This document shows positions 5,406-21,944 of a DNA stretch of 64,000 bases, piece after piece (positions within the stretch are counted from its first letter, which is position 1; each line of letters begins with the position of its first letter). Position numbers and translations under genes: made by a program. This stretch comes from an uncultured Candidatus Binatia bacterium (GTDB lineage: Bacteria > Desulfobacterota > Binatia > UBA9968 > JAJDTQ01). The notes beneath the pieces were generated by a model, which had not been told where the DNA came from, did no database searches, and saw only the letters and a list, made by a program, of their open reading frames with translations. Location: the NCBI GenBank assembly GCA_965215605.1, contig OZ244070.1:224001-288000 (forward strand). The letters are read 5' to 3'.

Positions 5406-7253
5406 CTAATCCGCGACCCGGCGTTGGCGCAGCCGCTCACGCAACCCGTGGGTCGCGGCCTCGTCGACCTTCAAGGTCCCCTCTTCCATCACCACGCCGT
5501 AGATCTCCTCGGCAACGCCCGTGGACACCCGCTCGTTCAACACGCTCTCCGCCACCGTTTCCGGGTCCCGGTCCAGCGGGTCGCCGTAGCCGCCGCCGCT
5601 CCCCAGCCGCAGGTAGAGCACGTCATCCTTGCCGATCTCGAACTCGCAGTAGGGCAGCAGCCGCCTCTCGCCTTCCAGAACGGGGATGTCGTCGATGCAC
5701 CGGTGAGCGGCCAGCAACTCGTTGACGCGCGTCCCTTCGAGCAACACCAACAGGCTCGGTGCGCCGGGGTAGCCGCCGAACATGCCCACGCCGGAGTTCC
5801 TCAGGCCTGCCACCCCGAAGGCCACGCCGCGGATCTTGTCCTCCGGTGCGTCGTGAAGCTTCACGGTGGCTTCCACTCCCACGCCGCCGGCGAACCTGCC
5901 GGCGCCGCCGCCGTCCTTCAGGTGGCGGCGGAAGAGGTACATGAGCGGGAAGTTCAGCTCGAGCCACTCGACGTTGTGGCACGTGAGGTAGCCGCCGGAA
6001 TCGATGCCGTCGCCGTGGGGGCTGGCGCCGGAGCCGCTCAACTCCAGCAGCGTGGAGACGTAGAAACGGCCGTACTGGTTGGCGCCGGCGTGGCGCACGA
6101 CGCGGAACCCCAGGGTCAGGGCCGTGACCTCGTCCTTCCAGCTCTCGCTGCCCGCGAGCATCTGGGCCAGCACCGAGGCGGACACGTAGGAGACCGTCTT
6201 GAGCCCCGAGGTGGTGTTCATGGACACGGGCCCGGGATACTGCACGTTCACAACGGTGCCCTCCGGCGCGATGACCTCGATGGGGCCGAAGGCGCCGTAG
6301 TTCTTGGGAAGGTCATAGCCCAGCGCGGTGAGCACCGCCTCGAAGACCCCGCCGAAGGTGGCGTGGTACGGCAGGTTGATGCCCTGGCGCGCCTGCGTGT
6401 CGCTGCCGGTGAAGTCGAAAGTCATGCGGTCGCCGCGCTTGCGCAGCTCGACGCACACCCGGCGGGTCTCGTTGGCGACGATGGTGCCCTCGTCGCGCCA
6501 GGTGCCGTCTGGTATCTCCCGGAGACGCTTCCCCAGGACATCCCGGGAGTAGCGGATCATTTCGGCGGACACCGCGGTGATGAGATCCGGGCCGTACTGC
6601 GCGAACATCTCCTCCATGCGCGAGCGGGCAACGTTGTTGGCCGCCAGCTCGCACTTGAGGTCCAGTCCCACCAGCACCGGCTGCCGGGTCATGTTGATGA
6701 GGGTGTCGAAGACGTCCTGGCGCATCCGGCCCCGCTCCACCAGCTTGAGGCCGGGTATCCTGAGCCCCTCGTGGCAGATCTCGGTGGCGCCGGGCGAGTT
6801 GCCGCCCGGCGACATGGCGCCGATGTCCATGACGTGGACGAAGGTGGCGCTCCAGGCCATCAGCCGGTCCTCATGGTGAATCGGCGCGATCATGTAGATG
6901 TCGGACTGGTGGATGGCGGCGAGATAGGGATCGTTGAGCAGGAAGACGTCGCCGGGATAGATCCCGCCGTTCTCTTCGAAGCGCTCGATGATCCGCTTGA
7001 CCGCGAACCCGGCGCAGGCGGCGTGCCGGATCATCGACTCGCCCACCGACAGCACGTCACCGCTGGCCATGTAGAGGGACGCCATGTAGTCGTGGAGCTG
7101 GGTGGTGTTCACCGTCCCGCCCACGCGCTCCAGGGTGGCGCCCATCTCGCGCGTGATCTCGTGGAGCCGGTGCGAGAGGATCTCGAAGGTGACGGGGTCC
7201 AACTGCCTGCCCGCGGCGTCCGTCGTGTCCCTCGCGTCCATTGTCGCGTCCAT
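5406..7253 (-). CDS. hydantoinase B/oxoprolinase family protein
   Basis: LDPVTFEI, NDPY...HQSD, HVMDIGA, HEGLRIP, GGGYGDPL; start uncertain (7253 or 7241). Confidence 0.9.
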   Translation of the reverse strand: MDATMDARDTTDAAGRQLDPVTFEILSHRLHEITREMGATLERVGGTVNTTQLHDYMASLYMASGDVLSVGESMIRHAACAGFAVKRIIERFEENGGIYPGDVFLLNDPYLAAIHQSDIYMIAPIHHEDRLMAWSATFVHVMDIGAMSPGGNSPGATEICHEGLRIPGLKLVERGRMRQDVFDTLINMTRQPVLVGLDLKCELAANNVARSRMEEMFAQYGPDLITAVSAEMIRYSRDVLGKRLREIPDGTWRDEGTIVANETRRVCVELRKRGDRMTFDFTGSDTQARQGINLPYHATFGGVFEAVLTALGYDLPKNYGAFGPIEVIAPEGTVVNVQYPGPVSMNTTSGLKTVSYVSASVLAQMLAGSESWKDEVTALTLGFRVVRHAGANQYGRFYVSTLLELSGSGASPHGDGIDSGGYLTCHNVEWLELNFPLMYLFRRHLKDGGGAGRFAGGVGVEATVKLHDAPEDKIRGVAFGVAGLRNSGVGMFGGYPGAPSLLVLLEGTRVNELLAAHRCIDDIPVLEGERRLLPYCEFEIGKDDVLYLRLGSGGGYGDPLDRDPETVAESVLNERVSTGVAEEIYGVVMEEGTLKVDEAATHGLRERLRQRRVAD

Positions 7254-7377
7254 TGGATTCCCGGGCGTCCGATTCCCCTTGCCCGGTATTTCCGGGCCGT
7301 TGACCCCCGCCTCCCCGTTCTGTAACACTCGAACCATTGAACGGTCGCACAGAGGAAAGGGCCGCGAGGGGCATTCG

Positions 7378-8409
7378 ATGGATTTCGAATTTCATTACTA
7401 TATGACTTACCTGATCGCCGCCAGAGCGGGCTTCGATCCTGACAACGCCCGTTTGCTGGCCCATTCCTCGCAGTTCATCGACGACAACGACATGGTCTTC
7501 GAGATCGACAAGGGAAAGAGCTCCGCGTACGGCAACTACATCAGTCAGACCATGAACATCCTCAAGCCGAAGCGGGAGCTGTTTCGCATCTACCCGCTCT
7601 TCCACTTCATTCCCGGAGACCCCAAGGCCAGGACCGCGTGGCGCAAGGACGGCAAGATGCACTGGCTGTGCACGACACCCGACAGCCGGAACGCGAACGC
7701 CATCATGGACGATGCGCTCAGGTCGAGGAACGTCTATCGGATCGGGATCGCGGCCCACGGATACGCCGACACCTGGGCGCATCAGAACTTCACCGGCTAC
7801 TACGAGGATTTCAACGCCATGAACACGGGCCTCGGCCTCATCACCCCCAACATCGGACACGCGGACGCCGGGCACAACCCGGATTGGCCCGCCCTGCGCT
7901 GGCGCGATCCGCGGCTGTTGAGCGAGGCGGTGGACAACAAGGCGCGTTTCCTGGCCGCGGCGCGGCGCCTGTACGAAAAATTCGCCGGATTCGTCGACCC
8001 CAGGATATCCGACGCGGTTCTCAAGCGGACGCAGCGCGCGCTGTCACGCGATCTCGCGAAGGCCATCGGCGGGCGGGACCAAACGAACGGCCACTCTTCG
8101 ACACGCGTGTCGCGCTATCTGGAGTTGGCCAAACGCCCTGACTACGGCGGACGCGACTTGCCCGAGTACGACGAAGACCACTGGTTCGGCGAGGCGGTGA
8201 ACGAAGACGTGCGCGGCCTTCGCGACCGCAACGACAACGTTCTCTTGCGCTTCGACCCGTTGACGGACAGGTACACGTGGAAGTCCGGCCAACGTCACAA
8301 ACTCACCCACTGGTATCGGTTCCAGGAGGCCATCAAGACCCAGCAGGAGCATGCGTGGGCCATCTTGCGACGCTCCAATCTCAGGGGTCTCGCGTTGGGA
8401 AACTGGTGA
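7378..8409 (+). CDS. DUF6765-like protein (putative Zn-dependent phospholipase C/P1-nuclease-like fold)
   Basis: N-terminal MDFEFHYYMTY, SQFIDD, FHF, HGYADTWAHQNF, IGHAD His/Asp-rich motifs; ATG at 7378 after GAGGGG. Confidence 0.55.
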   Translation: MDFEFHYYMTYLIAARAGFDPDNARLLAHSSQFIDDNDMVFEIDKGKSSAYGNYISQTMNILKPKRELFRIYPLFHFIPGDPKARTAWRKDGKMHWLCTTPDSRNANAIMDDALRSRNVYRIGIAAHGYADTWAHQNFTGYYEDFNAMNTGLGLITPNIGHADAGHNPDWPALRWRDPRLLSEAVDNKARFLAAARRLYEKFAGFVDPRISDAVLKRTQRALSRDLAKAIGGRDQTNGHSSTRVSRYLELAKRPDYGGRDLPEYDEDHWFGEAVNEDVRGLRDRNDNVLLRFDPLTDRYTWKSGQRHKLTHWYRFQEAIKTQQEHAWAILRRSNLRGLALGNW

Positions 8410-10528
8410 ATCCTTTCCCCACGAAGATCCGCACGTTGCGGAACCCGTCGATCTCGGCCCGGTCCCGCGGGTTCACCACCACCGTGGTCACCGGGGTCTC
8501 GATGACCGCCGGGCCGGACAGTTCCATGCCCGGGCACATGCGCTGGAAGTCGTAGATGCGGGTGGGGGCGAACTCGCCCAGCTCCTCGAAGAACACGTTG
8601 CGGGGCGGTTTGAGGGCCTCGTCCGCGGGCGCCTTGCGCGCCGGCTCCTTCCTGACCCGGGGCTTCGCCAACAACCCCACCGCGGTGACCCGGAAGGTGA
8701 GAATCTCCTTGCCCGCCTCCCGGTAGCCGGAGCCCTTGCCGTAGGCCTTCTCGTAGGCGTCGTCGAACTCGGCGTAGAGCCGCTCCAGGTCGACCTCCGC
8801 CAGGGACGAGGTTCCCGCAGGCAGCGGTACGTTCAGTTCGTGCACTTGATAACGGTAGCGCATGTCGGCGCTGCGCGTGATCGCCATTTCGGAAGGGCCG
8901 AAACCGGCGGCGCCCAGGTCCGCCCGCGCCCTGCGGATCAGCTCGTCGAAGTTCGCGTTGACGCGGCCGGGATCGGCCGGCACCTGGAGGTGATCGGACT
9001 TGCCGTACTCGTGGACGACGTCGGAGCTGATGAGGCCCGTGGCGCCGTGCACCGAGGCCGTGGGCGGGATCACCACCTGCCGGACGCCGAGGTCGGCGGC
9101 GTAGCGGCTGGCGTGCACCGGCCCGGCACCGCCGAAGGCGAACAGCACGAACGAGCGCGGATCGTGCCCCTTCTCCACCGTCGCGCGGCGGATCAGATCG
9201 CTCATGTGCGCGTTGGAGATGCGGTAGATGCCGCGGGCCGCCTCGGACGCGCTCATGCCCAGGGGCTGCGCGATCCGCCTTGTCACCGCCCCAAGCGCGG
9301 CGTCGCGGTCCAGCCGCATGCGCCCGCCGAGGAAGTAGTCGGGGTTGAGGTAGCCGAGGACGAGATCCGCGTCGGAGACCGTGGGCTCGGCACCGCCGAG
9401 GCCGTAGCACACCGGCCCCGGACGGGCGCCAGCGCCCTCGGGCCCCACCTTGAGAAGGCCGGTCTCTTCCTCGATCCAGGCGACGCTGCCGCCGCCGGCG
9501 CCCACGGACTCGACCCAGATCTTGGGGGCCAGCACCCGGTGGCGGAGCACCACCGGCGTGTAGTCGCGCTCGATCCGCCCTTCCCGTACCACGCCCACCT
9601 TGAACGTGGTGCCGCCCATGTCGGTGGCCAGGATGTCGTGCTCGCCGATCAGCTCGCCCAGGAAACGGGTCCCCACCACCCCCGACACGGGTCCGGATTC
9701 GATGGTGCCCACGGCGTTGCGGCAGGTGGCCTCGATGTCGAGCACGCCGCCGTAGGCCTGCATGATCATCGGCGGCTTGGCCAGCCCCTTGCCCCGCAGC
9801 ACCTGATGGAGATTGACGAGGTAAGCGGAGATGCGCGGGCCGATGTAGGCGTTGAACACCGTGGTGGCGGTGCGCTCGTACTCGCCGACGAACGGCGCCG
9901 TGGCACTCGAAAGGGTGACGTAGACGCCTGGATGACGGCGCCGCAGGATGCCGGCCACCGCCTTCTCGTGGGCGTCGTTGGCCACGGACCAGAGCAGGCA
10001 CACGGCGACGGACTCGACGCCGCGCGCCACCAAGTCGTCCAGGGCGGCGGCGGCCTGCTCCTCGTCCAGGGGCACGGTAACGGCGCCCTTGTAGTCCACG
10101 CGTTCGTTCACCTCGGCCACCAGGGAGCGGGGAACGAAGGGCTCGGGCTTGCGCAGCCAAGCCAGCCGGCCGGCCTCGGCCTCGGTAAGCCCGTCGGTCA
10201 CCTTGCCGCGCATCATGAGCAGCGTATCCGGAAAGCCCCGGGTCGTCACCAGGCCGGTCCTCGGACCGGAGCGGGTGATCAGGGTGTTCTCGCCGATGGT
10301 GCAGGCGTGGAAGAAAAGCGTGGTTTGCCGGAGGAGATCCTCCTCGTCGCCAAGGCCGATATTGCGGGCCGCGTCCCGCACCGCGTCGGCAGCGCCGACG
10401 GAATAGTCCGGCGGCGTGGAAAGCGACTTGCCCACCACCATCTCGCCTTGGTCGTTGACCACGACGCAGTCGGTAAAGGTGCCGCCGATGTCCACGCCGA
10501 CCACGTATCGACCTCGGTAATCACTCAT
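8381..10528 (-). CDS. hydantoinase A/oxoprolinase family protein
   Basis: VGVDIGGTFTD, EYERTATT, ESGPVSG, DMGGTT, GPEGAGARPGPVCY, FGGAG. Confidence 0.92.
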   Translation of the reverse strand: MSDYRGRYVVGVDIGGTFTDCVVVNDQGEMVVGKSLSTPPDYSVGAADAVRDAARNIGLGDEEDLLRQTTLFFHACTIGENTLITRSGPRTGLVTTRGFPDTLLMMRGKVTDGLTEAEAGRLAWLRKPEPFVPRSLVAEVNERVDYKGAVTVPLDEEQAAAALDDLVARGVESVAVCLLWSVANDAHEKAVAGILRRRHPGVYVTLSSATAPFVGEYERTATTVFNAYIGPRISAYLVNLHQVLRGKGLAKPPMIMQAYGGVLDIEATCRNAVGTIESGPVSGVVGTRFLGELIGEHDILATDMGGTTFKVGVVREGRIERDYTPVVLRHRVLAPKIWVESVGAGGGSVAWIEEETGLLKVGPEGAGARPGPVCYGLGGAEPTVSDADLVLGYLNPDYFLGGRMRLDRDAALGAVTRRIAQPLGMSASEAARGIYRISNAHMSDLIRRATVEKGHDPRSFVLFAFGGAGPVHASRYAADLGVRQVVIPPTASVHGATGLISSDVVHEYGKSDHLQVPADPGRVNANFDELIRRARADLGAAGFGPSEMAITRSADMRYRYQVHELNVPLPAGTSSLAEVDLERLYAEFDDAYEKAYGKGSGYREAGKEILTFRVTAVGLLAKPRVRKEPARKAPADEALKPPRNVFFEELGEFAPTRIYDFQRMCPGMELSGPAVIETPVTTVVVNPRDRAEIDGFRNVRIFVGKGFTSFPTRDP

Positions 10529-11505
10529 ATAGGGTTGATATAATTACGGTTTTTAAGGGATCTGACCTGCGGATCGCCAGGCATCTCCACGCCCCAGTCA
10601 AGCATCTTCTCGTAGCGCCAGGATGACGTTCTGCCATCCGGATACATCGTTGGAATTTCGGCCTGGTATCTTGATTTTCGGCCTGCCGGATCTTCTTCGG
10701 CAAAGACCGCGACCACGCGGGCTTCGACAGAACGCCGCCTTGGCGCATCCTCCCGTGTCGTCGGATCGTTGAAGGCGGTGTGAAAGGTGACCCGGGAGGC
10801 CAGATCCTCGATGCGGGAATCGTATTGCCTGAAGATCATCGCCTCATTCGGCTCCATCCGTGGAAAGTAATGCCAGTTCTGGGCCATGTCATGAACAAGG
10901 CGGTACAATACCAGGCGGGTGGCCGGCTCGGTCAGGCGCCATCCATCGGAACTGATCATGTCATCGGCCAAGATGGTCGAATGGTCGCACAACGCAAGGG
11001 GTTTTGACTCGATTGCCTGCAGGGGGTCCGTGCTGCGCCAGACAGTGTAGACGCCGAAGTGATGGCCATCAGGTATGTCGAGCACTTCCTCGACATAGGG
11101 AGTCAGATCCGCGTGGGGCGTCTCCGCATAGGTCCCGGCGCCGTTGGGCGAACTTGGCACGCCGGTGCGAAACTCGTGCTGCATGGTCCGTGCACGAAGG
11201 CATCCGGTTGCCGCCATGACCAACTCCGCGCACTGGTCGTAGAACCGGGAAACGACATCGTCATGATTGCCGTAATCGATATCGATCGGCGCATGCACAA
11301 GCTCGAATCCCATGCGCCCGATGGTGGCGGCCGGTTCGAGGGCGCGCGCATCGTGAACGCGGATCGGCTTGACAACGAGCACTTCCGAATGATCGGCCCC
11401 ATCACCGTGGCATGGCAGCCGGAACCCCCGGTATCTCGGATTCACGAAGGCACTTTCCGAAACAACAAACGACGTATCGGGAAACAATGGCAGAGTTCTC
11501 ATCAT
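10525..11505 (-). CDS. CmcJ/NvfI-family putative Fe(II)/2-oxoglutarate oxygenase (copy 1)
   Basis: VHDAR...GFELV, PHAD (H-x-D), VWRS, PLALCD, WHYFPRM..E, FRQYDS, TFHTAF.DP, RRSVEAR. Confidence 0.75.
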   Translation of the reverse strand: MMRTLPLFPDTSFVVSESAFVNPRYRGFRLPCHGDGADHSEVLVVKPIRVHDARALEPAATIGRMGFELVHAPIDIDYGNHDDVVSRFYDQCAELVMAATGCLRARTMQHEFRTGVPSSPNGAGTYAETPHADLTPYVEEVLDIPDGHHFGVYTVWRSTDPLQAIESKPLALCDHSTILADDMISSDGWRLTEPATRLVLYRLVHDMAQNWHYFPRMEPNEAMIFRQYDSRIEDLASRVTFHTAFNDPTTREDAPRRRSVEARVVAVFAEEDPAGRKSRYQAEIPTMYPDGRTSSWRYEKMLDWGVEMPGDPQVRSLKNRNYINPI

Positions 11506-13016
11506 GACGTCGGCAGGTCCTGGAATTCGGGCGGTTGTGCCTTGCAGTAATCGTCAATGAATTGCTGGTGGTCCGGAAACTGGTCCACCTGCTTGTCGAC
11601 ATTTTCGTGGATGTCAGCCAGGTATTGCCCGAACTCCTCGTCGCTCATCGCATTGGCGATCGGGTGATACTGTTCCGGAATCAGACCCTGGCCCAGCATG
11701 ACCTGCGCCCATGACGTGGTGCCGAACAGTTCCGCCTGGTTCCACGCTATCCGGCCCGTTTGACGAAACAGCTTGATCCGGTGTTCGAGGGAGTCGGGAA
11801 TCTTCATGGTCCGGCACTGCCGCCAGAACGGCGTATCCGAGCGGTTGGTCACATGGTAGTGCAGGATGATGAAATCCCGGATATTGTCGATTTCAAGCTG
11901 CATGTGGGAATTGAACTCTGCGATCCCGGCTTCGCGAATTCCGTTATCGGGGAACATCTGGACCAGGCGGGTGATGCCGCGCTGAATGAGGTGGATGCTG
12001 GTCGATTCGAGCGGTTCGATGAAACCGGATGCCAGTCCCACGGCAACGCAGTTCTTGTGCCAGCACCTGTGCCTCTGGCCGGCTCTGAAACGGATCAGCC
12101 GCGGCTCTGCAAGCACCCGGCCCTGCACATTGTCGAGCAGCCGTGCCCTTGCCTCGTCGTCGGACCAGTGCCGGGAGGAGAACACCATGCCGTTCCCGAC
12201 CCGGTGCTGCAGCGGAATGCGCCATTGCCACCCCGCTTCACGGGCTATCGAGCGGGTATATGGATGCGCGGCTCCGGACGATTCGGTTGGCACCGCGATT
12301 GCGCGGTCACAGGGCAACCAGTCGCCATAATCATCGAAGCCGACATCGAGGGTTTGGCCGATCAGGAGCCCGCGAAAGCCGGTGCAGTCGATGAACAGGT
12401 CGCCGGTGACGAGTTGCCCGGTTTGCAGGCGCAGACCGGTTATGAATCCACTGGCCGGATCCTGTTCCACCTGCTCAATTCGTCCTTCATGCCGGACAAC
12501 GCCAAGCTCCTCGGCAATACCTCGCAGGAATTGTCCGTACAGTCCGGCATCAATATGATAGGCGTAGTTCAGAACGTTGTGCAGGCTGATTGCAAACCGG
12601 TCGCGCAGCGCCGCCGCTGTTTCCGGACAATATTCGCCATAATCCCGGGCCAGGCCCAGCAAATGGCCCCTCAGCCAGTAATGCTGAAAGCCGGCGGTCC
12701 AGCGCTCCCTGCCGACCCACCCGAAGGAATGGAAGTAGTCTTCGCCCAGGTCCCGCCAGTTCTCGAACGAAATTCCAAGCTTGAAGGTACCCTGTACGGC
12801 CCGCAGGAAATCAGTCTCCCTGACATCCATGTATTCGTGAAAAAGTCGCAGCGGTGGAATCGTCGCTTCACCCACCCCGACAGTGCCGATATCGTCGGAT
12901 TCGACCAGGACAATGTCCAGGGTTTCGCCAAGTTGCCGGGCAAACATTGCCGCAGCCATCCATCCGGCAGTCCCACCTCCGGCGATCACGAGTTTCCTGA
13001 TTTTCCTATTGTGCAT
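11502..13016 (-). CDS. flavin-dependent halogenase, tryptophan halogenase family (copy 1)
   Basis: GGGTAG FAD motif, VGVGEATIP, GTFKLGI (catalytic Lys position), GWQWRIPL (WxWxIP), GFIEPLESTSI. Confidence 0.93.
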   Translation of the reverse strand: MHNRKIRKLVIAGGGTAGWMAAAMFARQLGETLDIVLVESDDIGTVGVGEATIPPLRLFHEYMDVRETDFLRAVQGTFKLGISFENWRDLGEDYFHSFGWVGRERWTAGFQHYWLRGHLLGLARDYGEYCPETAAALRDRFAISLHNVLNYAYHIDAGLYGQFLRGIAEELGVVRHEGRIEQVEQDPASGFITGLRLQTGQLVTGDLFIDCTGFRGLLIGQTLDVGFDDYGDWLPCDRAIAVPTESSGAAHPYTRSIAREAGWQWRIPLQHRVGNGMVFSSRHWSDDEARARLLDNVQGRVLAEPRLIRFRAGQRHRCWHKNCVAVGLASGFIEPLESTSIHLIQRGITRLVQMFPDNGIREAGIAEFNSHMQLEIDNIRDFIILHYHVTNRSDTPFWRQCRTMKIPDSLEHRIKLFRQTGRIAWNQAELFGTTSWAQVMLGQGLIPEQYHPIANAMSDEEFGQYLADIHENVDKQVDQFPDHQQFIDDYCKAQPPEFQDLPTS

Positions 13017-13409
13017 AACCTGCCTCTGGAGGGTCGACTTGGCGTATTCGCGCCATTGCCGGACTGGTACAGGGCGGTTCAGGGCGGTTCAGTGTGGGCA
13101 AAATCTGCAGTCTGACATACGAGGCATCGACCAGGCCCGGAAGTCGGGGACCGGGCATCATGGGAATGGCGACACTGGCGTGCACCCATGACCGGCAGCG
13201 TTGGAGGATGGAAGTCCCGCTGGAAGAGACGGCAGCTCACCCGAAGGGAATGGTGCAGACTCCAGACCGGTCTGCCTGTGCCTCGATCTGTGACGGTGAG
13301 TTCATGTCCGTTCGCCCTGTTCTCTGAACATTGGCACAACGGCATTGCTTGGCAGGAAGAATGGCTCCGGCAGAAAATCAGCAGATCACTGCCGGAGACC
13401 CGACAATGC

Positions 13410-13670
13410 TCACCAGGTGTGGATGTCACCAATCCCGCCGGCAACGCCGCTGATTTCCTCATCCGACAGGCTGCGGCCCGCCGGTGGCAGGACCAGGTGA
13501 TAGTCGGTGGCGTTGTCTTCAAGGACATGGATGTTGATGCCGTCCGGAACCGAAAGCCCGGTCGCGTCCTTGATGGCTGCCTTCGGGTCATTCAGGAGCC
13601 GGGCGCGGAATTCTCCGTCCTCGTCGGCCTTGGCAAGTACCTGCGCCTCGATCTGTGATTGTCTGCTCAT
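13410..13670 (-). CDS. NHLP-leader RiPP precursor 1 (86 aa; predicted core IGDIHTW)
   Basis: AAGGAG RBS; leader KADEDGEFRARLLNDPKAAI...HLVLP...LSDEEISGVAGG double-glycine site followed by a 7-aa core. Confidence 0.88.
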   Translation of the reverse strand: MSRQSQIEAQVLAKADEDGEFRARLLNDPKAAIKDATGLSVPDGINIHVLEDNATDYHLVLPPAGRSLSDEEISGVAGGIGDIHTW

Positions 13671-13742
13671 GTCTTTCTCCTTATTCTCTGAACATCGCCA
13701 TAGCGACATGACGTCCTGCCGTTTTCCACGGCCATTGAACCT

Positions 13743-13771
13743 CAACTACTTCAGGTCATTGTTCGAGTCAA
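13743..13771 (-). promoter_or_regulatory. putative sigma70 promoter for precursor 1
   Basis: TTGACT-N17-TAGTTG on the minus strand. Confidence 0.35.
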
Positions 13772-13858
13772 CCCGATTGTTGCAAACTCTGGCGTTCCGT
13801 AAGCGTAAGCGAAACGTAAGCAACTGGCAGCAGAACGGGGCCAGCCGCACACCGGCGG

Positions 13859-14776
13859 CTATCCCGCGTTCCAATCGAGCATCACTTCGTGACGCGACGC
13901 CGCCGGGGTGCCGTCGAGATGGACTGTCGGAACCTCGGCCTGGAATCTGGCCCTTCTGACTTCGCGCTCCGTGTCGTCCTCGCGGAAGACCGCGACGACG
14001 CGCGCCTCCACTGATCGACGCAACGGCGCGTCCTCCCGGGTCGTCGGATCCTTGAAGGCGGAATGAAAGGTCATCCTGCGATTCGGCTCCTCCCGGCGCG
14101 AATCATACTGCACGAAGATCAGCGCCTCGTCCGGCGTCATGCGCGGAAAGTAGTACCAGCACTGACCGAGATTGTGGACAAGGCGGTAGTCCACCAACAG
14201 CGTTGGCGGTTCGGTCCGTCGCATACTGTCGGCGCAGACCATGTCGGTGCGGGATACGGTGGCGCCGTCGCAAAGGGCCAGCGGCATGAACTCTATTTCC
14301 CGTTCCGGATCGATACTGCGCCAGACGTTGAACAGGCCGAAATGCCGCCCTTCCGGGATATCCACGACGTCCTCGATGTAGGGGGTCACGTCGCCGTGGG
14401 CCGGCAGTCCATAGGCGCCGTTGGGGGTTCCATCCCTGAACTCATGTTGCATGACCTCCGCGGCCAGGCATCCGGTCGCCGCTCTGACAAGGTTCAAACA
14501 ATATTCGTAGAAGCGCGTCTTGACGAGCTCCCTGTTGGAGAAATCGATGCGAATGGGAGCTTCCACCAACTGGAAGCCCTGGTCATCGAGACTCGGAGCC
14601 TGCTCGAGCGCGCGGGCGTCATGGACCCGGATCGGCTTGCGGAGAAACATCTGCCGCCTCTCATCCAGATCGAGGGTTTGCTCGTACCCCAGGCGCTTGC
14701 CGCGATACTTTGGGTTCGCGAAGATCGTGTCCGAGATTACCGAGGGCGCGTCTGCCAAGGCCGGGATTCGTCTCAT
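13859..14776 (-). CDS. CmcJ/NvfI-family putative Fe(II)/2-oxoglutarate oxygenase (copy 2)
   Basis: Clear paralogue of 10525..11505: PAHGD, NVWRS, PLALCD, WYYFPRM, QYDS, TFHSAF.DP, RRSVEAR. Confidence 0.75.
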   Translation of the reverse strand: MRRIPALADAPSVISDTIFANPKYRGKRLGYEQTLDLDERRQMFLRKPIRVHDARALEQAPSLDDQGFQLVEAPIRIDFSNRELVKTRFYEYCLNLVRAATGCLAAEVMQHEFRDGTPNGAYGLPAHGDVTPYIEDVVDIPEGRHFGLFNVWRSIDPEREIEFMPLALCDGATVSRTDMVCADSMRRTEPPTLLVDYRLVHNLGQCWYYFPRMTPDEALIFVQYDSRREEPNRRMTFHSAFKDPTTREDAPLRRSVEARVVAVFREDDTEREVRRARFQAEVPTVHLDGTPAASRHEVMLDWNAG

Positions 14777-14797: not shown

Positions 14798-17713
14798 TCA
14801 AGCCATTTGCCGCGATGCAAGGTCACGGAACGGACCGTCCGCGTTGAACAGCTCGTCGAAACGGCCGACCTGCACCACGCGGCCGCCCTTCAGCACGTAG
14901 ATCCGATCCGCCTTGCGGATGGTGGACAGCCGGTGGGCAATGACGAAACGAGTGCCGGTGGATTCCTCGACGGCCTTCATCGTCTGCGCCTGGCTCTTGG
15001 TGTCGAGCCAGCTCGTGGGCTCGTCGAGGAAGACGATGCGCGGGTTCCGCACCAGCGCGGCGGCGAGGCCGATGCGCTGACCCTGACCACCCGAGAACGT
15101 CGCCGCGTTCTCGCCTACCGTGGTGTAGAGCCCCATCGGCATGTTGCGGATGTCCTGGTCGACGGCCGCCAGGCGGGCGGCGCGCCACGCATCGACCGTG
15201 GTCAGATCGTTGCCGATGCCGATGATGTTGGTGAGAATGGTGCCGGCCTGGAGCGAGCCGTTCTGCATGACCACGCCGATCTGCCGCCGCACGGCGCCGA
15301 CGTCCAGTTGGGCCAGGTCCTGACCGTCGTAGTACACCGCGCCCGACGACGGCTTCTCCAGCCCCAGCGCAAGCCGGAACACCGTGCTCTTGCCGGCGCC
15401 CGATTCGCCCACCACCGCGACGAACTCGCCGGGCTTCGCGTGAATCGAGACCTCTTGCAGTATCCTGGGGCTGCCCTCGGAATAACTGAAGCTCACCTTG
15501 TCGAGGACGACTTCCCCTTCGAGTGTCGGCCGGATGCCGCGTCGGGCTCCGGCGTCCACCGGGCTCGCGAGTATCGGAAGCACCTGCTCGCATGCCGGCT
15601 TGATGAATGCCACGGCCCTGGCCGAATTGCCCAGCATCACGATGGACAGGCAAAAGACCATGGCCGCGATGTGGACGGCCACGAAGCCCGCCGCCGGGAG
15701 TCCACCGGCGCCTTGCGACGCCACCACCGAGAACAGGACGGCGCTGGCCAGCGCGGGCACTCCGGCGCTGAAGGCGGTGAGGCGTTCGCCGAGGACGGCT
15801 ATCCGGATCTCCGCCTGCTTGTGTTCCCGGTAGCGCTTCGCCCAGGCGGCGAAAGCCGAGTCTTCCGCGCCGGTGGCGCGCAGCTTGGCGATGCCGTTCA
15901 GGAACTGGTGCATGTCGCCGGCGAGTTGGCGCGCCGTTTCGAGGTGGCGCCGCTGCGGTTCGACATTGAGGATGCAAAAGACGGCCGTGGCGCCGAGCAC
16001 GACCATGCCCAGAAACACCATGGCCCAGCCCAGCGCCGCGCTGTGGTAGAACAGCAGCCCGAAGGCAGGCAACACGAACAACGTCGACAACACCGCGTCG
16101 GCCGTGACTCCGGCGACATTGTCCCTGATTTCCTGGAAGACCATGGACCGCGCCACCAGCTCGCCCGCGGTGAAGCGGCGAAAGAAGGCCGATGGCAGGC
16201 GCAGCAGACGGTCCCATACGGTCGAGACGAGCCGCGCGGCCAGACGCCCCTCCAGACGCATGAGCGCAGTGCCGCGGAGGACGTGCGCCGCCGCCGCCAC
16301 GAAGGCCAGCCCCACCAGAACGGCCGAGAACTGAATCAGCGCGGCCGCGTCGCCCGCGGGGATCACCCGGTCGACCAGCAGGTCGACGGCCACGGCCGGC
16401 GCGAGACTCAGCAAACCGGCGCCGAGGCCCGCGGCCACGAGCCGGCCGGTCTCGGTGGCGGCCTTTGTGCCGCCGACACGGAACAACTCGCGCAGTCCGG
16501 CGGCGCCCTCGGCGTGGAGCCTGGGATACAGCAGGCGAGCGTCGCGAATCTCGTGGGTCGTCTCGGCGCTGGCGGGTGTGGACTCACCGGTCACCGGATC
16601 CACCACGCGGTACCGGCCCGCCCGGCCGGGCAGCAGGACGACAGGACGGTCATCGTCGCGCCGAAAGGCCAGCAGCGCGCCGCTGTCCCCCAGGTACCAA
16701 CGGTCTTCCACCAACAGCCGGACTCGGCGCTCACGCACTCCCGACGCCTCGCAGTAATCGCGGAGCGACGGTTCCGCCCCGGCGCCGACGGCCGGCGTAC
16801 TGAATCGGATGCCTTCGTGCCGGCCGATGATCCGCAATGCGTTCCCGAGGGCCGTACCGTCCAACGCCGTCTCGTCACCGGCGTCAGACAGGCTCGACAG
16901 GTTCCGCCTGGCCAAGGCCTTGTCGTGGCGGCGCTGCGAAGCCTGCGCCACCTGCAGATTGGCGTCGTCGACCCGCAGCAGCCGCCGGTGCATGGACTCG
17001 GCGCCGAGAACCAACCGATGAAACTCCGGCAAGGCTGAGGTCAGCAGCGTGGCGATGTCGATCTCGCCGGTGGACACCCCGGTAATGTCCGTGGCCGAAT
17101 GCAGCCTGAGCCAGGTATCCCGGGTCAGGGGCATCATGCCGGGACCGTCCCTCCCCCCGGTGTCCGCCAGATCGAGGAAGGTAGCCTGGAGGTCGTCGGC
17201 CACAACCCAGACCACGCCGCGCTCGGCCGACACGATGCCGCTGCCCGCCGCACCTCCGGGAAGGAGCCGATGCTCGGTTCGGGGATGCTCCTCCATTTCG
17301 CGAACCACGGCGCCGCCCAGGTCCTCGATCCAGGCATCGACCTGCGCGCGCAGCGCGCACGAGAGCCGGTCGGCGTCGTCGCTCCGCTGCGCCGCGTCCA
17401 GCAACCGGTGGAGGGACAAGCAACGCAAGGAGGACCCTTGCAGTCCCTTCGCGATCAGTTTCAGGGAATGAGCGGCCGCGCCGGCGCCGAACGCCAGCCG
17501 GCCCTGCTCCAGGCGCACGACATGCCTGAAGGGCGACTGCATCTGGTCATCGGCGTACTCTGCCGCCAGGACGTCGATGGCTCCTCGTTCGACGAACCAG
17601 ACGACGCCGGCGTCCTGCAGGTGGATCGGGCGGCTTGCGGCGGCTTCCCGTGGCTCGCCGAACGCCGCGGCGAACTCGGCCAGCACGTCCCTCGGTTGTT
17701 CGTCATTCGCCAC
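14798..17713 (-). CDS. NHLP bacteriocin-system ABC transporter permease/ATPase (no active peptidase)
   Basis: N-terminal cNMP-binding-like segment (VWFVERGAIDV), TM domain, GESGAGKST, FSGGQ, FLDEPTS; start uncertain (GTG 17713 or ATG 17758). Confidence 0.85.
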   Translation of the reverse strand: MANDEQPRDVLAEFAAAFGEPREAAASRPIHLQDAGVVWFVERGAIDVLAAEYADDQMQSPFRHVVRLEQGRLAFGAGAAAHSLKLIAKGLQGSSLRCLSLHRLLDAAQRSDDADRLSCALRAQVDAWIEDLGGAVVREMEEHPRTEHRLLPGGAAGSGIVSAERGVVWVVADDLQATFLDLADTGGRDGPGMMPLTRDTWLRLHSATDITGVSTGEIDIATLLTSALPEFHRLVLGAESMHRRLLRVDDANLQVAQASQRRHDKALARRNLSSLSDAGDETALDGTALGNALRIIGRHEGIRFSTPAVGAGAEPSLRDYCEASGVRERRVRLLVEDRWYLGDSGALLAFRRDDDRPVVLLPGRAGRYRVVDPVTGESTPASAETTHEIRDARLLYPRLHAEGAAGLRELFRVGGTKAATETGRLVAAGLGAGLLSLAPAVAVDLLVDRVIPAGDAAALIQFSAVLVGLAFVAAAAHVLRGTALMRLEGRLAARLVSTVWDRLLRLPSAFFRRFTAGELVARSMVFQEIRDNVAGVTADAVLSTLFVLPAFGLLFYHSAALGWAMVFLGMVVLGATAVFCILNVEPQRRHLETARQLAGDMHQFLNGIAKLRATGAEDSAFAAWAKRYREHKQAEIRIAVLGERLTAFSAGVPALASAVLFSVVASQGAGGLPAAGFVAVHIAAMVFCLSIVMLGNSARAVAFIKPACEQVLPILASPVDAGARRGIRPTLEGEVVLDKVSFSYSEGSPRILQEVSIHAKPGEFVAVVGESGAGKSTVFRLALGLEKPSSGAVYYDGQDLAQLDVGAVRRQIGVVMQNGSLQAGTILTNIIGIGNDLTTVDAWRAARLAAVDQDIRNMPMGLYTTVGENAATFSGGQGQRIGLAAALVRNPRIVFLDEPTSWLDTKSQAQTMKAVEESTGTRFVIAHRLSTIRKADRIYVLKGGRVVQVGRFDELFNADGPFRDLASRQMA

Positions 17714-19922
17714 GAAGCAGCCCGTGGTAGAAGGTGCCGGCGGCGTGGAGCTCGTCATGCGTTCCCTGCTCCACGATGCGGCCCTTGTCGACGACGATGA
17801 TCCGGTCGGCGTCGCGGATGGTGCTCAGCCGATGCGCGATGATCAGACAGGAGCATCCGCGACGCCGGATTCGATCGTCGATGAGCAACTCGGTTACGGG
17901 GTCGAGGGCGCTGGTGGCTTCATCGAGGATCAGCAGCGACGGGTTGTTGACCAGCGCCCGGGCGATTTCCAGGCGCATGCGCTGTCCGCCGCTGAAGTTG
18001 CGTCCTCCCTCTTCCACCATGGACTCGTAGCCCGCCGGGCGGCCGATGATGTCCTCATGAACCGCGGCGTCGCGGGCCGCGGCGGTCACATGGTGATCCG
18101 GTATCGTCGCGGTCCACATGGTGAGGTTGTTGCGTATGGTCGTGGCGAACAGGACCGCATGCTGATCGACCATGGAGACGGACCGGCAGAATACCTCCCG
18201 CGGGATATCGACTTGCGGGTGGCCGTCGAAGAGCACTTCCCCGGACCAGGGCCGATGCAGACCCGCCGCCAGAAGCGCCAACGTGGACTTGCCCGAACCG
18301 CTGGGCCCCACCACCGCAACGCGCTGGCCGGGCTCGATGGTCAGGTTGAAGTCCTCGACGAGCGGCGCACGGTTCCGCTGGAAACCGAACGTGACGCCCC
18401 GCATCTCCAATCGTCCGACCAGACGCAGCCGGCCGTCGAGCGTCATGACCCGCTGTTGCGCGTCGGCGGCATGGTCGGGATAGGACATCTCCTGCGGCGC
18501 ATTGACCACGTCGTCCATCCTTGCCATATCGGCCTCCAGCGTCTCCAGCAGATCGGAGAACTGGGAAACCCGGGCCACGGGACCCAGAAAATTACCGGCG
18601 AGAACGTAGAATCCCATCAACCCGCCAAGGGTCATCTCGCCCGACATCGTGCGCCAGCCGCCAAGGCCGAACACCGCCGCCGCCGCGAGTATCTGAAACA
18701 GTTGCGGCAGCGCCGCGGCCACATGACCGAGTTCCACGAACGCCTGCCGCGCGCTCAGCTCGCGAGCCTGTCTGCCACTCCACAGCGAGAAGAAATCGGC
18801 CTCGCGGGCGGTTGCCTGCAAGGTCTCGATCATCTTGACGCCCGCCGTGCCCACCCCGAACGATATGCCCTGCTCGCGCCGTAGTCGATGGTTCTTGTCC
18901 CGGCGGAGGCGGGTCAGCACCTGTATCGACGCGACGCTGGCAACTCCCAAACCCCCAACCACAAGCGCCAGCCAGACATCGTATGCCACCATGACAACCA
19001 GAAAGGTCGCGCTCATGATGAGATCTACGGACAGCCGCACCATCTGGCCGGCTCCGGTGTCGGCGATCTGGTCGATGGTCCGCATGCGCAACGCCAGGTC
19101 TCCGGCGAGCCGGTGGGCGAAGAACCGCATGGGAAGCCGAAGCAAACGATCCAGGAAGTAGTCTGATTGGCTTATGGCAAGCCGGACGATGAGTTCGCGC
19201 AGGGAACGCATCTGGAGCCAGGTCAACAGGCAGATCAGCACGCTGGCGGCGAACATCGCCGCGATCAGCGCCCTGCTCTGACCCATCTGCTGGTCCTGAA
19301 AAACGCGATCCACGAATTCCGCAAGCAATACCGGCGGCGCCAGCAAGGTCAAGGCAAGGAGCAGGCCGTAGACGGCGGTGCGGGTCAGGAGGGAGCGATG
19401 GCCTCGCAACCACGGCCACAGGCGGCGCGCGACACCCGGACGCGCCCCGCCGGGCCGAAACGTGGGGCCCGGCTCGAGAATCAGGCCGACGCCCGTAAAC
19501 TCCTGACCGAAGTCACGCGCGTCGACGACGCGATGACCTTCGGCGGGATCATTCAGATAGTAGCGCCCGCGCGCGATGCCCTCCAGGACCACGAAGTGCC
19601 TGAATCCCCAATACAGGACCATCGGCTTCGGCAGCTTGGCGAGGCCATGGACCTGGCTGCTCCAGCCGGTGGCCTTCAGGCCGTATTTCCTGGCGGCGAT
19701 GGCGATGTCTTCGAGCGTCGAACCGTCACGCCCGACTCCGCAGTCGTCACGCAGAACTTCCAGGGGCACCCTGCGCCCGAAATGGGCGAGCACGGCGCCA
19801 AGGCATGCCGCGCCGCAGTCGGCCGCCTCCAACTGCATGAACAACGGTGTGCGGCGCGGTCTCCGCCAGCGCCCGAGCGTCCCGGGAGCAGCGGAGAATT
19901 TTGATTCGGCAGGATCAGCCAT
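17703..19922 (-). CDS. NHLP-family peptidase C39-containing ABC exporter
   Basis: QLEAADCGAACL (catalytic Cys), HFVV (His), NDPA (Asp), TM domain, GPSGSGKST, FSGGQ, ILDEATS. Confidence 0.92.
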   Translation of the reverse strand: MADPAESKFSAAPGTLGRWRRPRRTPLFMQLEAADCGAACLGAVLAHFGRRVPLEVLRDDCGVGRDGSTLEDIAIAARKYGLKATGWSSQVHGLAKLPKPMVLYWGFRHFVVLEGIARGRYYLNDPAEGHRVVDARDFGQEFTGVGLILEPGPTFRPGGARPGVARRLWPWLRGHRSLLTRTAVYGLLLALTLLAPPVLLAEFVDRVFQDQQMGQSRALIAAMFAASVLICLLTWLQMRSLRELIVRLAISQSDYFLDRLLRLPMRFFAHRLAGDLALRMRTIDQIADTGAGQMVRLSVDLIMSATFLVVMVAYDVWLALVVGGLGVASVASIQVLTRLRRDKNHRLRREQGISFGVGTAGVKMIETLQATAREADFFSLWSGRQARELSARQAFVELGHVAAALPQLFQILAAAAVFGLGGWRTMSGEMTLGGLMGFYVLAGNFLGPVARVSQFSDLLETLEADMARMDDVVNAPQEMSYPDHAADAQQRVMTLDGRLRLVGRLEMRGVTFGFQRNRAPLVEDFNLTIEPGQRVAVVGPSGSGKSTLALLAAGLHRPWSGEVLFDGHPQVDIPREVFCRSVSMVDQHAVLFATTIRNNLTMWTATIPDHHVTAAARDAAVHEDIIGRPAGYESMVEEGGRNFSGGQRMRLEIARALVNNPSLLILDEATSALDPVTELLIDDRIRRRGCSCLIIAHRLSTIRDADRIIVVDKGRIVEQGTHDELHAAGTFYHGLLRGE

Positions 19923-20110
19923 GCGGGGCTTACGGCCACAACGTAACTGCGGCCCAGGCTACGAGCATCAGCAACGGGACCAGAAGCGCCGCCACGAAAA
20001 CGCGCTCATGCGGTGCCGTCACGCGCAACAGGTCGTCCACTGCCTCGGGTTGCACGCTGCGGATGAGCGCTTCCTGGCGGTAAACGGAGGGGGCCGGCAT
20101 CAGGCAAGGA

Positions 20111-20164: not shown

Positions 20165-20425
20165 TTACCAAAGAGCGCTCCAGGAACCACCGGCGGCCGC
20201 GCGCATTTCTTCGTCCGAGAGAGCACCCCCGGCCGGCGGCAGGACCAGATGAACGTCCGTGGCGCTCTCTTCGTGAACGTGGACGGTCAGGTCCTCCGGC
20301 ATGGCCAACCCCGTGGCTTGCTCAATGGCCTTCCTCGGATCTTCCAGGAGCAGGGCACGGAATGCTTCGTCCTCGTCCGCCTTCGCTCGCACGAGAACCT
20401 CGACCTCTGGTGAAGAATTTGCCAT
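20165..20425 (-). CDS. NHLP-leader RiPP precursor 2 (86 aa; predicted core SWSALW)
   Basis: AAGGAGG RBS; leader KADEDEAFRALLLEDPRKAI...HLVLPP...LSDEEMRAAAGG followed by a 6-aa core. Confidence 0.88.
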   Translation of the reverse strand: MANSSPEVEVLVRAKADEDEAFRALLLEDPRKAIEQATGLAMPEDLTVHVHEESATDVHLVLPPAGGALSDEEMRAAAGGSWSALW

Positions 20426-20669: not shown

Positions 20670-21944
20670 ATGGTACAGCCGGGCGCCGAGTCTTTACGGA
20701 AAATCGCCGTTGTGGGGCGAGGAACCGCCGGGTCCATGGCGACCGCCAGCATCACACATGCCCTCCGGGACACGGACCACGAGCTGCACCACATCTACGA
20801 CTCGCGCATTCCGGTCATCGGCGTGGGTGAAGGCAGTTGGCCAAGCCTTGTTCGTGAGTTGCAGCGACTGACGCATCTTCCCCTTGACGCGATTCAAATG
20901 CGCGTGAAGGGAACCCGCAAGTACGGCGTGGCATTCGAGGGCTGGGGCCGGCGCAACCAAAACTTCATCCATTACTTCATGCCGCGCCATGAGTCCTACG
21001 GCTACCATCTGTCTGCCGACTTGATGGCGGACCTCCTGCGGGAACACACGAGAGCGCGCCACATCGACGCCAAAGTGCTTGACATCACCAGGGTGGAGGA
21101 CGGCGCCCGGGTGGAATTCGAGAATCTGGCGCCGGAACGCTACGATCTGGTCTTCGATGCCCGCGGTTTTCCGAGAGAACTTCATCCCGACCAGCACATC
21201 CACATCCCCTTCATCCCCACCAATACGGCCGTCATCCGGCGCTGTCCGGCGATCTTCGAGGAAGCGCAGGACGGGCCGGTTCTGCAACACACCTTTACCC
21301 GCGCCGTCGCGCGTCCCCACGGCTGGATATTCGTGATTCCGCTTACCACGCACACGTCCTGCGGGTACATCTTCAACCGCGACGTATCGAGCCCCGCCGC
21401 GGTCGAGTCCGACTTCGACGCGTTCCTCAAGACGGAAGGAATATCCGAATTCGAGCAACGCGCCGTCATTCCGTTCCCGAATTTCGTCCATCGCGCCATG
21501 TATGACGGCGCAATAGCACGCATCGGCAATGCGGCGACGTTCATGGAACCCCTTGAAGCGACGGCGATCGGGGGCGCCGGGGCCCAGATCGGACTGGTGC
21601 TTCACGCGCGCCTCAGCCGTCCGGTGGAAAAACTCGAAGAGGACGCACCGGTGGTCAACCGGTTTCTCGTCAAAAACATGCTCTCCTTCGGCCTGTTCGT
21701 CGGTTGGCACTATGCCCGCGGCTCGAACTACGACAGCGGTTTCTGGCGCCATGCTCGTGATCACGCCTGGCCGCGGCACCGCAGGGCGTTGGACACCGAG
21801 CCGGCGGGTTCCCCCGCGCTCCGGAGTTTCGACGAGATGATCGAAGCGACGGCCCGCACCGTCATCGATGCAGCGGACTGGAAACGGGAATGCGGGTTCC
21901 CGTTCAGCAGCTATTACCAGATGTCTCAGGGCCTCGGCTGTTGA
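20670..21944 (+). CDS. divergent flavin-dependent halogenase-like protein (copy 2, 424 aa)
   Basis: GRGTAG, IGVGEGS, GTRKYGV (Lys kept), GWIFVIP (WxWxIP variant), FMEPLEATAI. Confidence 0.8.
   Translation: MVQPGAESLRKIAVVGRGTAGSMATASITHALRDTDHELHHIYDSRIPVIGVGEGSWPSLVRELQRLTHLPLDAIQMRVKGTRKYGVAFEGWGRRNQNFIHYFMPRHESYGYHLSADLMADLLREHTRARHIDAKVLDITRVEDGARVEFENLAPERYDLVFDARGFPRELHPDQHIHIPFIPTNTAVIRRCPAIFEEAQDGPVLQHTFTRAVARPHGWIFVIPLTTHTSCGYIFNRDVSSPAAVESDFDAFLKTEGISEFEQRAVIPFPNFVHRAMYDGAIARIGNAATFMEPLEATAIGGAGAQIGLVLHARLSRPVEKLEEDAPVVNRFLVKNMLSFGLFVGWHYARGSNYDSGFWRHARDHAWPRHRRALDTEPAGSPALRSFDEMIEATARTVIDAADWKRECGFPFSSYYQMSQGLGC

Follow-up and report, generated by a model that had tools for sequence, protein, structure and literature searches.

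A 64,000-nt stretch of a Candidatus Binatia genome, hereafter the window, encodes a short precursor peptide (precursor 1) with the seven-residue core IGDIHTW, next to genes for a flavin-dependent halogenase (halogenase 1) and an Fe/2OG oxygenase (oxygenase 2). The core is conserved, the linkage of the three genes extends across phyla, both enzymes retain the catalytic residues of their families, and in the window the three genes form an insertion in a second NHLP cluster. We think it reasonably probable that precursor 1 gives rise to a linear IGDIHTW peptide that travels with its own halogenase and oxygenase and undergoes Trp bromination, a single core oxidation, Gly-Gly cleavage and export. 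Halogenase 1 would brominate Trp7 of leader-bound precursor 1, oxygenase 2 would oxidise the core once, and the C39 domain of the neighbouring exporter would cut after Gly79, with export of the product. Judging from sequence comparisons, oxygenase 2 quite probably oxidises precursor 1, whichever oxidation this may be, and halogenase 1 has a better than even chance of halogenating it. By inference, the halogen would be bromine, halogenation would precede removal of the leader, and precursor 1 would use the host cluster's exporter. That the peptide is a shared signal or a defence compound is a guess.

Precursor 1 and the inserted segment

The features of the window that bear on this proposal are as follows.

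10525..11505, minus strand: oxygenase 2, CmcJ/NvfI Fe/2OG type (NF041278 151.8 bits, above 80; H131-D133-H242 and RxS); travels with precursor 1
10529..13851, minus strand: inserted segment of 3.3 kb (precursor 1, halogenase 1, oxygenase 2), delimited by comparison with the closest related locus, L071
11502..13016, minus strand: halogenase 1, 504 aa, Xcc4156/BrvH group (PF04820; GxGxxG, Lys79, WxWxIP); likely cognate enzyme
13275..13345, minus strand: decayed 5' part of a duplicated precursor (upstream region, ribosome-binding site and about 10 codons from ATG 13305), from sequence comparison
13340..13409, minus strand: stable RNA hairpin directly 3' of the stop codon (-32.4 kcal/mol, z -4.3, 0 of 200 shuffles equally stable)
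13410..13433, minus strand: core IGDIHTW and TGA stop, from the reading frame (family consensus IGDIDTW)
13434..13670, minus strand: precursor 1 leader, 79 aa, NHLP type with a double-glycine end (TIGR03793 74.6 bits, above 50.9)
13677..13682, minus strand: ribosome-binding site AAGGAG, 6 nt before ATG 13670
13859..14776, minus strand: oxygenase 1, a CmcJ/NvfI sister enzyme with 55% identity to oxygenase 2; part of the precursor 2 module
14798..17758, minus strand: NHLP exporter subunit 2 (TIGR03797 665 bits, below the cut-off of 709)
17703..19922, minus strand: NHLP exporter subunit 1 with C39 peptidase (TIGR03796 849.7 bits, 3.6 bits under the cut-off of 853.3; PF03412)
20165..20425, minus strand: precursor 2, NHLP leader, core SWSALW (TIGR03793 62.3 bits)
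20670..21944, plus strand: halogenase 2 of srp (SrpI-like) type, 424 aa with the catalytic Lys at 84; oriented divergently to precursor 2

Read from ATG 13670 to TGA 13410 on the minus strand, precursor 1 has 86 aa, comprising a 79-aa leader that ends in LSDEEISGVAGG and the core IGDIHTW. A reading made from the sequence alone (the sequence-only reading) had called it an NHLP precursor with a double-glycine leader end, and both calls hold: the leader scores well above the cut-off of the NHLP (proteusin-type) leader model TIGR03793 (leader_NHLP), and its cleavage site is VAGG at residues 76-79. The same reading was right to move the start to 13670. The ORF finder begins at TTG 13745, giving 111 aa, and we dismissed this longer form because AAGGAG precedes ATG 13670, because the alignment of homologues begins at the Met of that ATG, and because in-frame stops lie upstream of this Met in homologous loci (three codons upstream in 3 of 21 loci, within 60 codons in 20 of 21).

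A protein search returned 48 candidates, 47 of them homologues of precursor 1. These are full homologues at 68-90% identity, and pN/pS is low (0.25 for the core, 0.32 for the leader, from 22 distinct genes whose pairs are not independent), which together indicate that precursor 1 is a real gene and not a chance reading frame. The terminal Trp, expected to persist when homologous cores were aligned, is present in all 47 with no exception, and none of the 47 cores contains Cys. Forty of the 47 match the pattern D-I/M-x-T/S/E-W; family counts leave out the seven cores off this pattern, as well as eight of the 33 loci L043-L075 that have no such core. Asp at -5 is likewise found in 40 of 47 homologues, 47 being the fair denominator because this Asp is built into the family pattern. 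At the position of the His, the 40 family cores have Asp (27), Asn (5), His (4) or Gly (4). Given the pN/pS values, the invariant Trp and the scarcity of His, the core is under selection with Trp fixed and His not; with only four of 40 cores carrying it, we dropped His as a conserved site, which weakens its earlier suggestion as a plausible hydroxylation site.

The hairpin after the stop codon, which includes a terminator-like prediction at 13394-13379, would act as a transcript stabiliser or a partial terminator. Where the window has the decayed duplicate, relatives carry whole or broken second and third precursors. A promoter scan found no sigma-70 site on the minus strand; a TTGACT hexamer at 13766-13771 (minus strand), about 100 nt upstream of the start and present upstream in several homologous loci, is absent from the output of that scan and is possibly a -35 element.

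The 3.3-kb segment with precursor 1, halogenase 1 and oxygenase 2 is an insert within a second NHLP cluster. The order on the minus strand is precursor 2, the C39-bearing NHLP exporter and its partner, oxygenase 1, precursor 1, halogenase 1, oxygenase 2 and a hydantoinase-family gene. Over 9.3 kb, the cluster and its flank are 97% identical to L071, also from Candidatus Binatia, in which oxygenase 1 is joined directly to the hydantoinase gene; the window carries 3.3 kb (13851-10529) between the two. Third-position GC is 0.68-0.75 in the inserted segment versus 0.91-0.92 in the hydantoinase genes. Among contigs from sequencing runs, compared at a likeness threshold of 88, two runs have the form without the insert, joined at 10528-13852 and 10569-13854, and two runs have pieces that span each junction of the form with the insert; these runs may include the window's own sample. 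The depth of these contigs was discarded as a measure of copy number. Most relatives have the order precursor, halogenase, own exporter pair, oxygenase; the window's inserted segment, without an exporter of its own, would borrow that of the host cluster, which lies 4 kb from precursor 1 and has the C39 residues Gln30, Cys36, His109 and Asp125 in its subunit 1. Ahead of the exporter, the HlyD adaptor gene survives as a short remnant (19951-20076, minus strand). A DUF6765 gene (7102-8409, plus strand) lies on the opposite strand between two hydantoinase subunit genes, in a segment missing from L071.

Distribution of the cassette

Scans of contigs from genomes and metagenomes yielded 42 loci, of which the 33 close ones (L043-L075) were tabulated and 25 have a family core. 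In 22 of these 25, the same strand carries a halogenase gene whose start lies 92-1092 bp downstream and whose product shares 79-97% identity with halogenase 1; identities are over the full or near-full length, with two halogenases cut by contig ends. For two of the three family loci without a halogenase, the contig ends less than 900 bp downstream. No halogenase was found in the 3.1 kb downstream of the family precursor in L053, nor in the genome bin that holds the related precursor of L065. Among 26 selected genomes there are 22 halogenase matches of at least 79%, 21 of them in precursor loci and one at a contig edge. Orthologues of oxygenase 2 (73-94% identity) are found in 15 of the 25 family loci and, at a greater distance but next to exporter genes, in another four genomes. 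Since the family loci are kin, all these counts speak for tight linkage, not for independent origins.

Loci that combine precursor and halogenase span Alphaproteobacteria, Gammaproteobacteria and Binatota, and in a Nitrospirales bin the halogenase is paired with a different Trp-ended core. The cassette is present in one of 27 same-genus genomes searched, and the window's halogenase 1 is matched at up to 94% identity by proteobacterial copies, suggesting that the cassette has moved sideways, likely by lateral transfer between unrelated bacteria. The srp clusters of sponge microbiomes are likewise spread over unrelated symbionts, and nine of the 20 genomes that carry the cassette also hold an srp gene with the core LCCCW. 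These genes, together with the taxon names, point to the carriers being sponge dwellers.

Precursor 1, halogenase 1 and oxygenase 2 all recur in the window's own assembly, in a different setting on contig C6 (L001:405-3881), where the core reads IGDINTW. Over 2.9 kb this second copy matches a same-genus genome at 99% identity, and contig C6 may belong to another strain, contamination of the assembly being 5.7%. More distant NHLP-like peptides without a double-glycine motif (L076-L084) are Trp-ended in eight of nine metagenome loci, where the window's enzymes have no match.

Oxygenase 2 and the site of oxidation

Both oxygenases of the window pass the CmcJ/NvfI model NF041278 and keep the HxD...H triad and RxS. 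The best fold matches of a model of oxygenase 2 (pLDDT 62) are NvfI (E 1.6e-16) and CTB9, so that model score, catalytic residues and fold all place it in the CmcJ/NvfI family. NvfI, CTB9 and CmcJ are about 24% identical to oxygenase 2, and known members act on small molecules. By contrast, the subfamily of oxygenase 2 (26 clusters at E<=1e-20, 45-95% identity) is tied to NHLP loci: in 26 genomes, chosen for having precursors, 29 of 31 oxygenase matches have an NHLP precursor or exporter nearby and the other two are at contig edges. If oxygenase 2 does modify precursor 1, CmcJ/NvfI oxygenases are pointed to as a peptide-modifying family.

Every one of the 43 precursor hits in L043-L075 has Trp or Tyr as its last residue. 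Enzymes of the oxygenase 1 type pair with SWSALW and WAPTSSSY, and neither core contains Asp, Asn or His; in L051, a 94% orthologue of oxygenase 2 adjoins TNNYGPWGW and IGVDGVRNATGTPTW only. Because partner cores end in Trp or Tyr, and because SWSALW and WAPTSSSY lack the other candidate residues, we favour the side chain of the terminal aromatic residue over Asp3, our second choice, as the site of oxidation. This ranking is weakened by the fact that aromatic ends are common in these peptides, including those without a halogenase. Provided that oxygenase 2 acts on the core, our own judgement is that the side chain of the terminal Trp has a little under an even chance of being the site, that Asp3 is a lesser possibility, and that position 5 is improbable, the remainder going to other sites.

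Beta-hydroxylation of Asp3 or of position 5 (Asp, Asn or His), within an otherwise identical pathway, is accordingly the rival that we take most seriously, although we consider it unlikely. The 2OG enzymes of ribosomal peptides offer a precedent for beta-hydroxylation of both Asp and His (PMC12636437), Asp is frequent at -5, and 36 of 40 cores have Asp, Asn or His at position 5. However, the sister oxygenases lie beside cores with none of these residues, TNNYGPWGW and IGVDGVRNATGTPTW are the only partners of the close orthologue in L051, and position 5 is Gly in four of 40 cores; moreover, codons for Asp, Asn and His are one base apart, at the first position, and their exchange may be drift.

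Returning to oxidation at the terminal Trp, one specific outcome, which we regard as rather improbable, is that this residue is brominated on the leader and then undergoes decarboxylative desaturation by the CmcJ/NvfI enzyme, giving a peptide that ends in bromo-didehydrotryptamine (an enamide). If true, this would explain the Trp or Tyr end of every partner core. Decarboxylative desaturation at a benzylic carbon has been described for PIsnB, which takes small substrates (PMC9467999), and halocyamines are peptides that end in 6-bromo-didehydrotryptamine (PMC8719109), although we claim no link between them and the window's cluster. The computed [M+H]+ values are 873.33 for the bromo-enamide (79Br), 919.33 for bromination alone and 935.33 for bromination with hydroxylation.

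A sister cluster type (L050, L068-L070, L072, L145, L156, L157, L160) has oxygenase 1-like genes and cores such as FAPTNDSY, WAPTDDSY and FAPGGDSW, with a methyltransferase in some cases and a separate 67-68% halogenase in two.

Halogenases, the terminal Trp and known peptide systems

The solved structures closest to halogenase 1 are Xcc4156 (6y1w, 631 bits) and BrvH (6frl, 487 bits), ahead of RebH (about 303 bits). As well as being closest to these two enzymes by sequence, halogenase 1 has GxGxxG, the catalytic Lys and WxWxIP, and its substrate loops are short, with no long ones in the alignment. Xcc4156 and BrvH brominate indoles, not free Trp, and have an open site; PMC7336383 states that their native substrates are unknown and proposes a peptide. 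Among the best 120 of 7999 scored relatives of halogenase 1, six clusters at 79-96% identity are followed by a very large group at 66-71%, and a precursor is known for none of that group within these best 120. In a tree that omits two partial family halogenases (L054, L062) and a 27-aa fragment (L073), the 22 precursor-linked halogenases (21 loci and the window) split from 34 sampled relatives on a branch of 99/100; 29 of 114 listed outgroup proteins were used, and the root is unreliable. The two sets differ at residues 423-428, which read IAWNQA in the precursor-linked enzymes versus VFKVPT in the relatives. These residues fall in the region aligned to loop 2 of Xcc4156, flanking the open substrate site, and the difference fits a change of substrate without proving one. 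Three relatives at 69-70% identity sit in a SapC/cupin context, one of them Pfam-confirmed and with a TonB receptor. This is the SapC, cupin and TonB receptor neighbourhood described in PMC2938197 for close relatives of Xcc4156 and BrvH, whereas halogenase 1 adjoins an NHLP precursor. If halogenase 1 does act on precursor 1, this would be the first natural substrate for the large Xcc4156/BrvH group, and the proposal of a peptide substrate could be tested with an 86-aa precursor and one enzyme. A predicted complex of halogenase 1, precursor residues 55-86 and FAD scored 0.21, against a mark of 0.32, and weighs neither for nor against the pairing. No flavin reductase gene was identified among the recurring neighbours of family loci.

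Terminal Trp does not by itself imply bromination. In three same-genus genomes (98-99% complete), 17 of 25 NHLP cores are Trp-ended, and the same genomes have zero matches to PF04820. A prenyltransferase-like gene is found in 13 of the 25 family loci and beside two precursor arrays of same-genus genomes, and Trp may therefore be conserved for a different enzyme. These considerations bear on the alternative that the halogenase acts on free indole or on the released peptide instead of the leader-bound precursor, with Trp kept for prenylation or receptor binding, to which we give a small but real chance. The closest characterised relatives of halogenase 1 brominate free indoles, MibH is described as acting after leader removal, and Trp-ended cores do exist without a halogenase. 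Yet the window's own subgroup, which lacks a close prenyltransferase-like gene, has kept both Trp and halogenase: such genes are present there only as distant paralogues (24-31% full-length identity in nine genomes, none in the tenth). We therefore expect no prenylation there, and the sole linked enzymes are the halogenase and the oxygenase.

The prenyltransferase-like protein of L057 (L057:11946-13004, 353 aa) matches no Pfam or NCBIfam family and resembles aromatic prenyltransferases by features only (score 0.87-0.89). Two arrays, of 18 and four NHLP precursors (L038:5588-18700 and L041:7765-11024), have highly varied, mostly Trp-ended cores and are accompanied by an exporter and a prenyltransferase-like gene; their genomes gave no Trp-halogenase match.

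The sequence-only reading had likened the terminal Trp to the residue brominated in srp-type precursors. A tightly linked halogenase is present (22 of 25 family loci), but the linked enzyme is not of the srp type. Around nine LCCCW precursors we found four full halogenases, and with these as proxies for the SrpI sequence, halogenase 2 is 59-70% identical and halogenase 1 22-26%; the two halogenases of the window are 24% identical to each other. The catalytic Lys of SrpI is Lys84 (PMC10858898), and that of halogenase 2 is also at 84. By these comparisons halogenase 2 is assigned to the srp type and halogenase 1 is not, and we rejected the srp label for the latter, whose best match is Xcc4156.

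SrpI takes cores of 5-7 residues attached to NHLP leaders and brominates their C-terminal Trp (PMC10286304, PMC12615548). Bromination of precursor 1 by halogenase 2 in the source genome, alone or beside halogenase 1, would be in keeping with the reported ability of SrpI to take several NHLP leaders and short Trp-ended cores; halogenase 2 is 7 kb away, and the leaders of precursors 1 and 2 are 59% identical. We nevertheless regard this as decidedly unlikely, since none of the 25 family loci has an orthologue of halogenase 2 (22-29% cross-hits only) and since this enzyme travels with precursor 2, as in L071. Under our preferred assignment of halogenase 1 to precursor 1, each of the two halogenase types in the window has a precursor of its own, which sets up a natural cross-test of specificity, and the symbionts that carry srp clusters would possess a second route to peptide Trp halogenation.

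The spacing of H-x-W in the core is that of known aromatic crosslinks; cyclophane and biarylitide clusters encode a radical-SAM or P450 enzyme, and their peptides have two conserved crosslink residues. The crosslink suggested earlier from this spacing does not hold up, and a three-residue cyclophane or biaryl between His5 and Trp7, although Fe/2OG enzymes are known to close rings (PMC12006828), is so improbable that we set it aside: the conserved residue pair is missing, with His in four of 40 cores, and so is the enzyme type, given that none of the genome's radical-SAM (15 matches), P450 (3) or YcaO (1) genes is in the window and that no such gene was identified among the recurring neighbours of family loci.

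Clusters of the precursor 1 type would work like the srp clusters (SrpE precursor, SrpC YcaO, SrpI brominase), with which they share an NHLP leader, a short Trp-ended core and a flavin-dependent halogenase, yet they fall outside the srp group by core, YcaO and halogenase type. IGDIHTW has the length (5-7 residues) and the C-terminal Trp of srp cores, but it is not the Cys-rich LCCCW core; the genome's only YcaO cyclodehydratase gene is about 258 kb away, at a cluster with the core LCCCGI; neither halogenase supplies a cognate enzyme of the SrpI type; and a CmcJ/NvfI oxygenase is present instead. For the srp leader motif LXXXXL (as given in PMC10858898), precursor 1 reads LSDEEI, with Ile at the last Leu. 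Halogenases that act on peptide Trp, as we propose for halogenase 1, are also found in the brominated lanthipeptide mpp (MppI) and in chlorolassin (ChlH), but those products are macrocyclic or lasso peptides with other leaders, whereas the precursor 1 locus has no ring-forming enzyme. The literature that we searched holds no description of precursor 1-type clusters and no match for the core sequences, including SWSALW, although the srp paper (10.1021/jacs.1c03474) and its supplements may list them; a 2026 preprint on halogenated sponge peptides (10.64898/2026.08.03.742642) excludes ribosomal peptides from its scope.

The LCCCGI cluster of the same genome (L002:5792-19900, C1 482-496 kb) is srp-like, with a YcaO gene, an exporter and a prenyltransferase-like gene; it has no halogenase, and its core has no Trp. 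Relatives have the core variants LCCCGL and RCCC.
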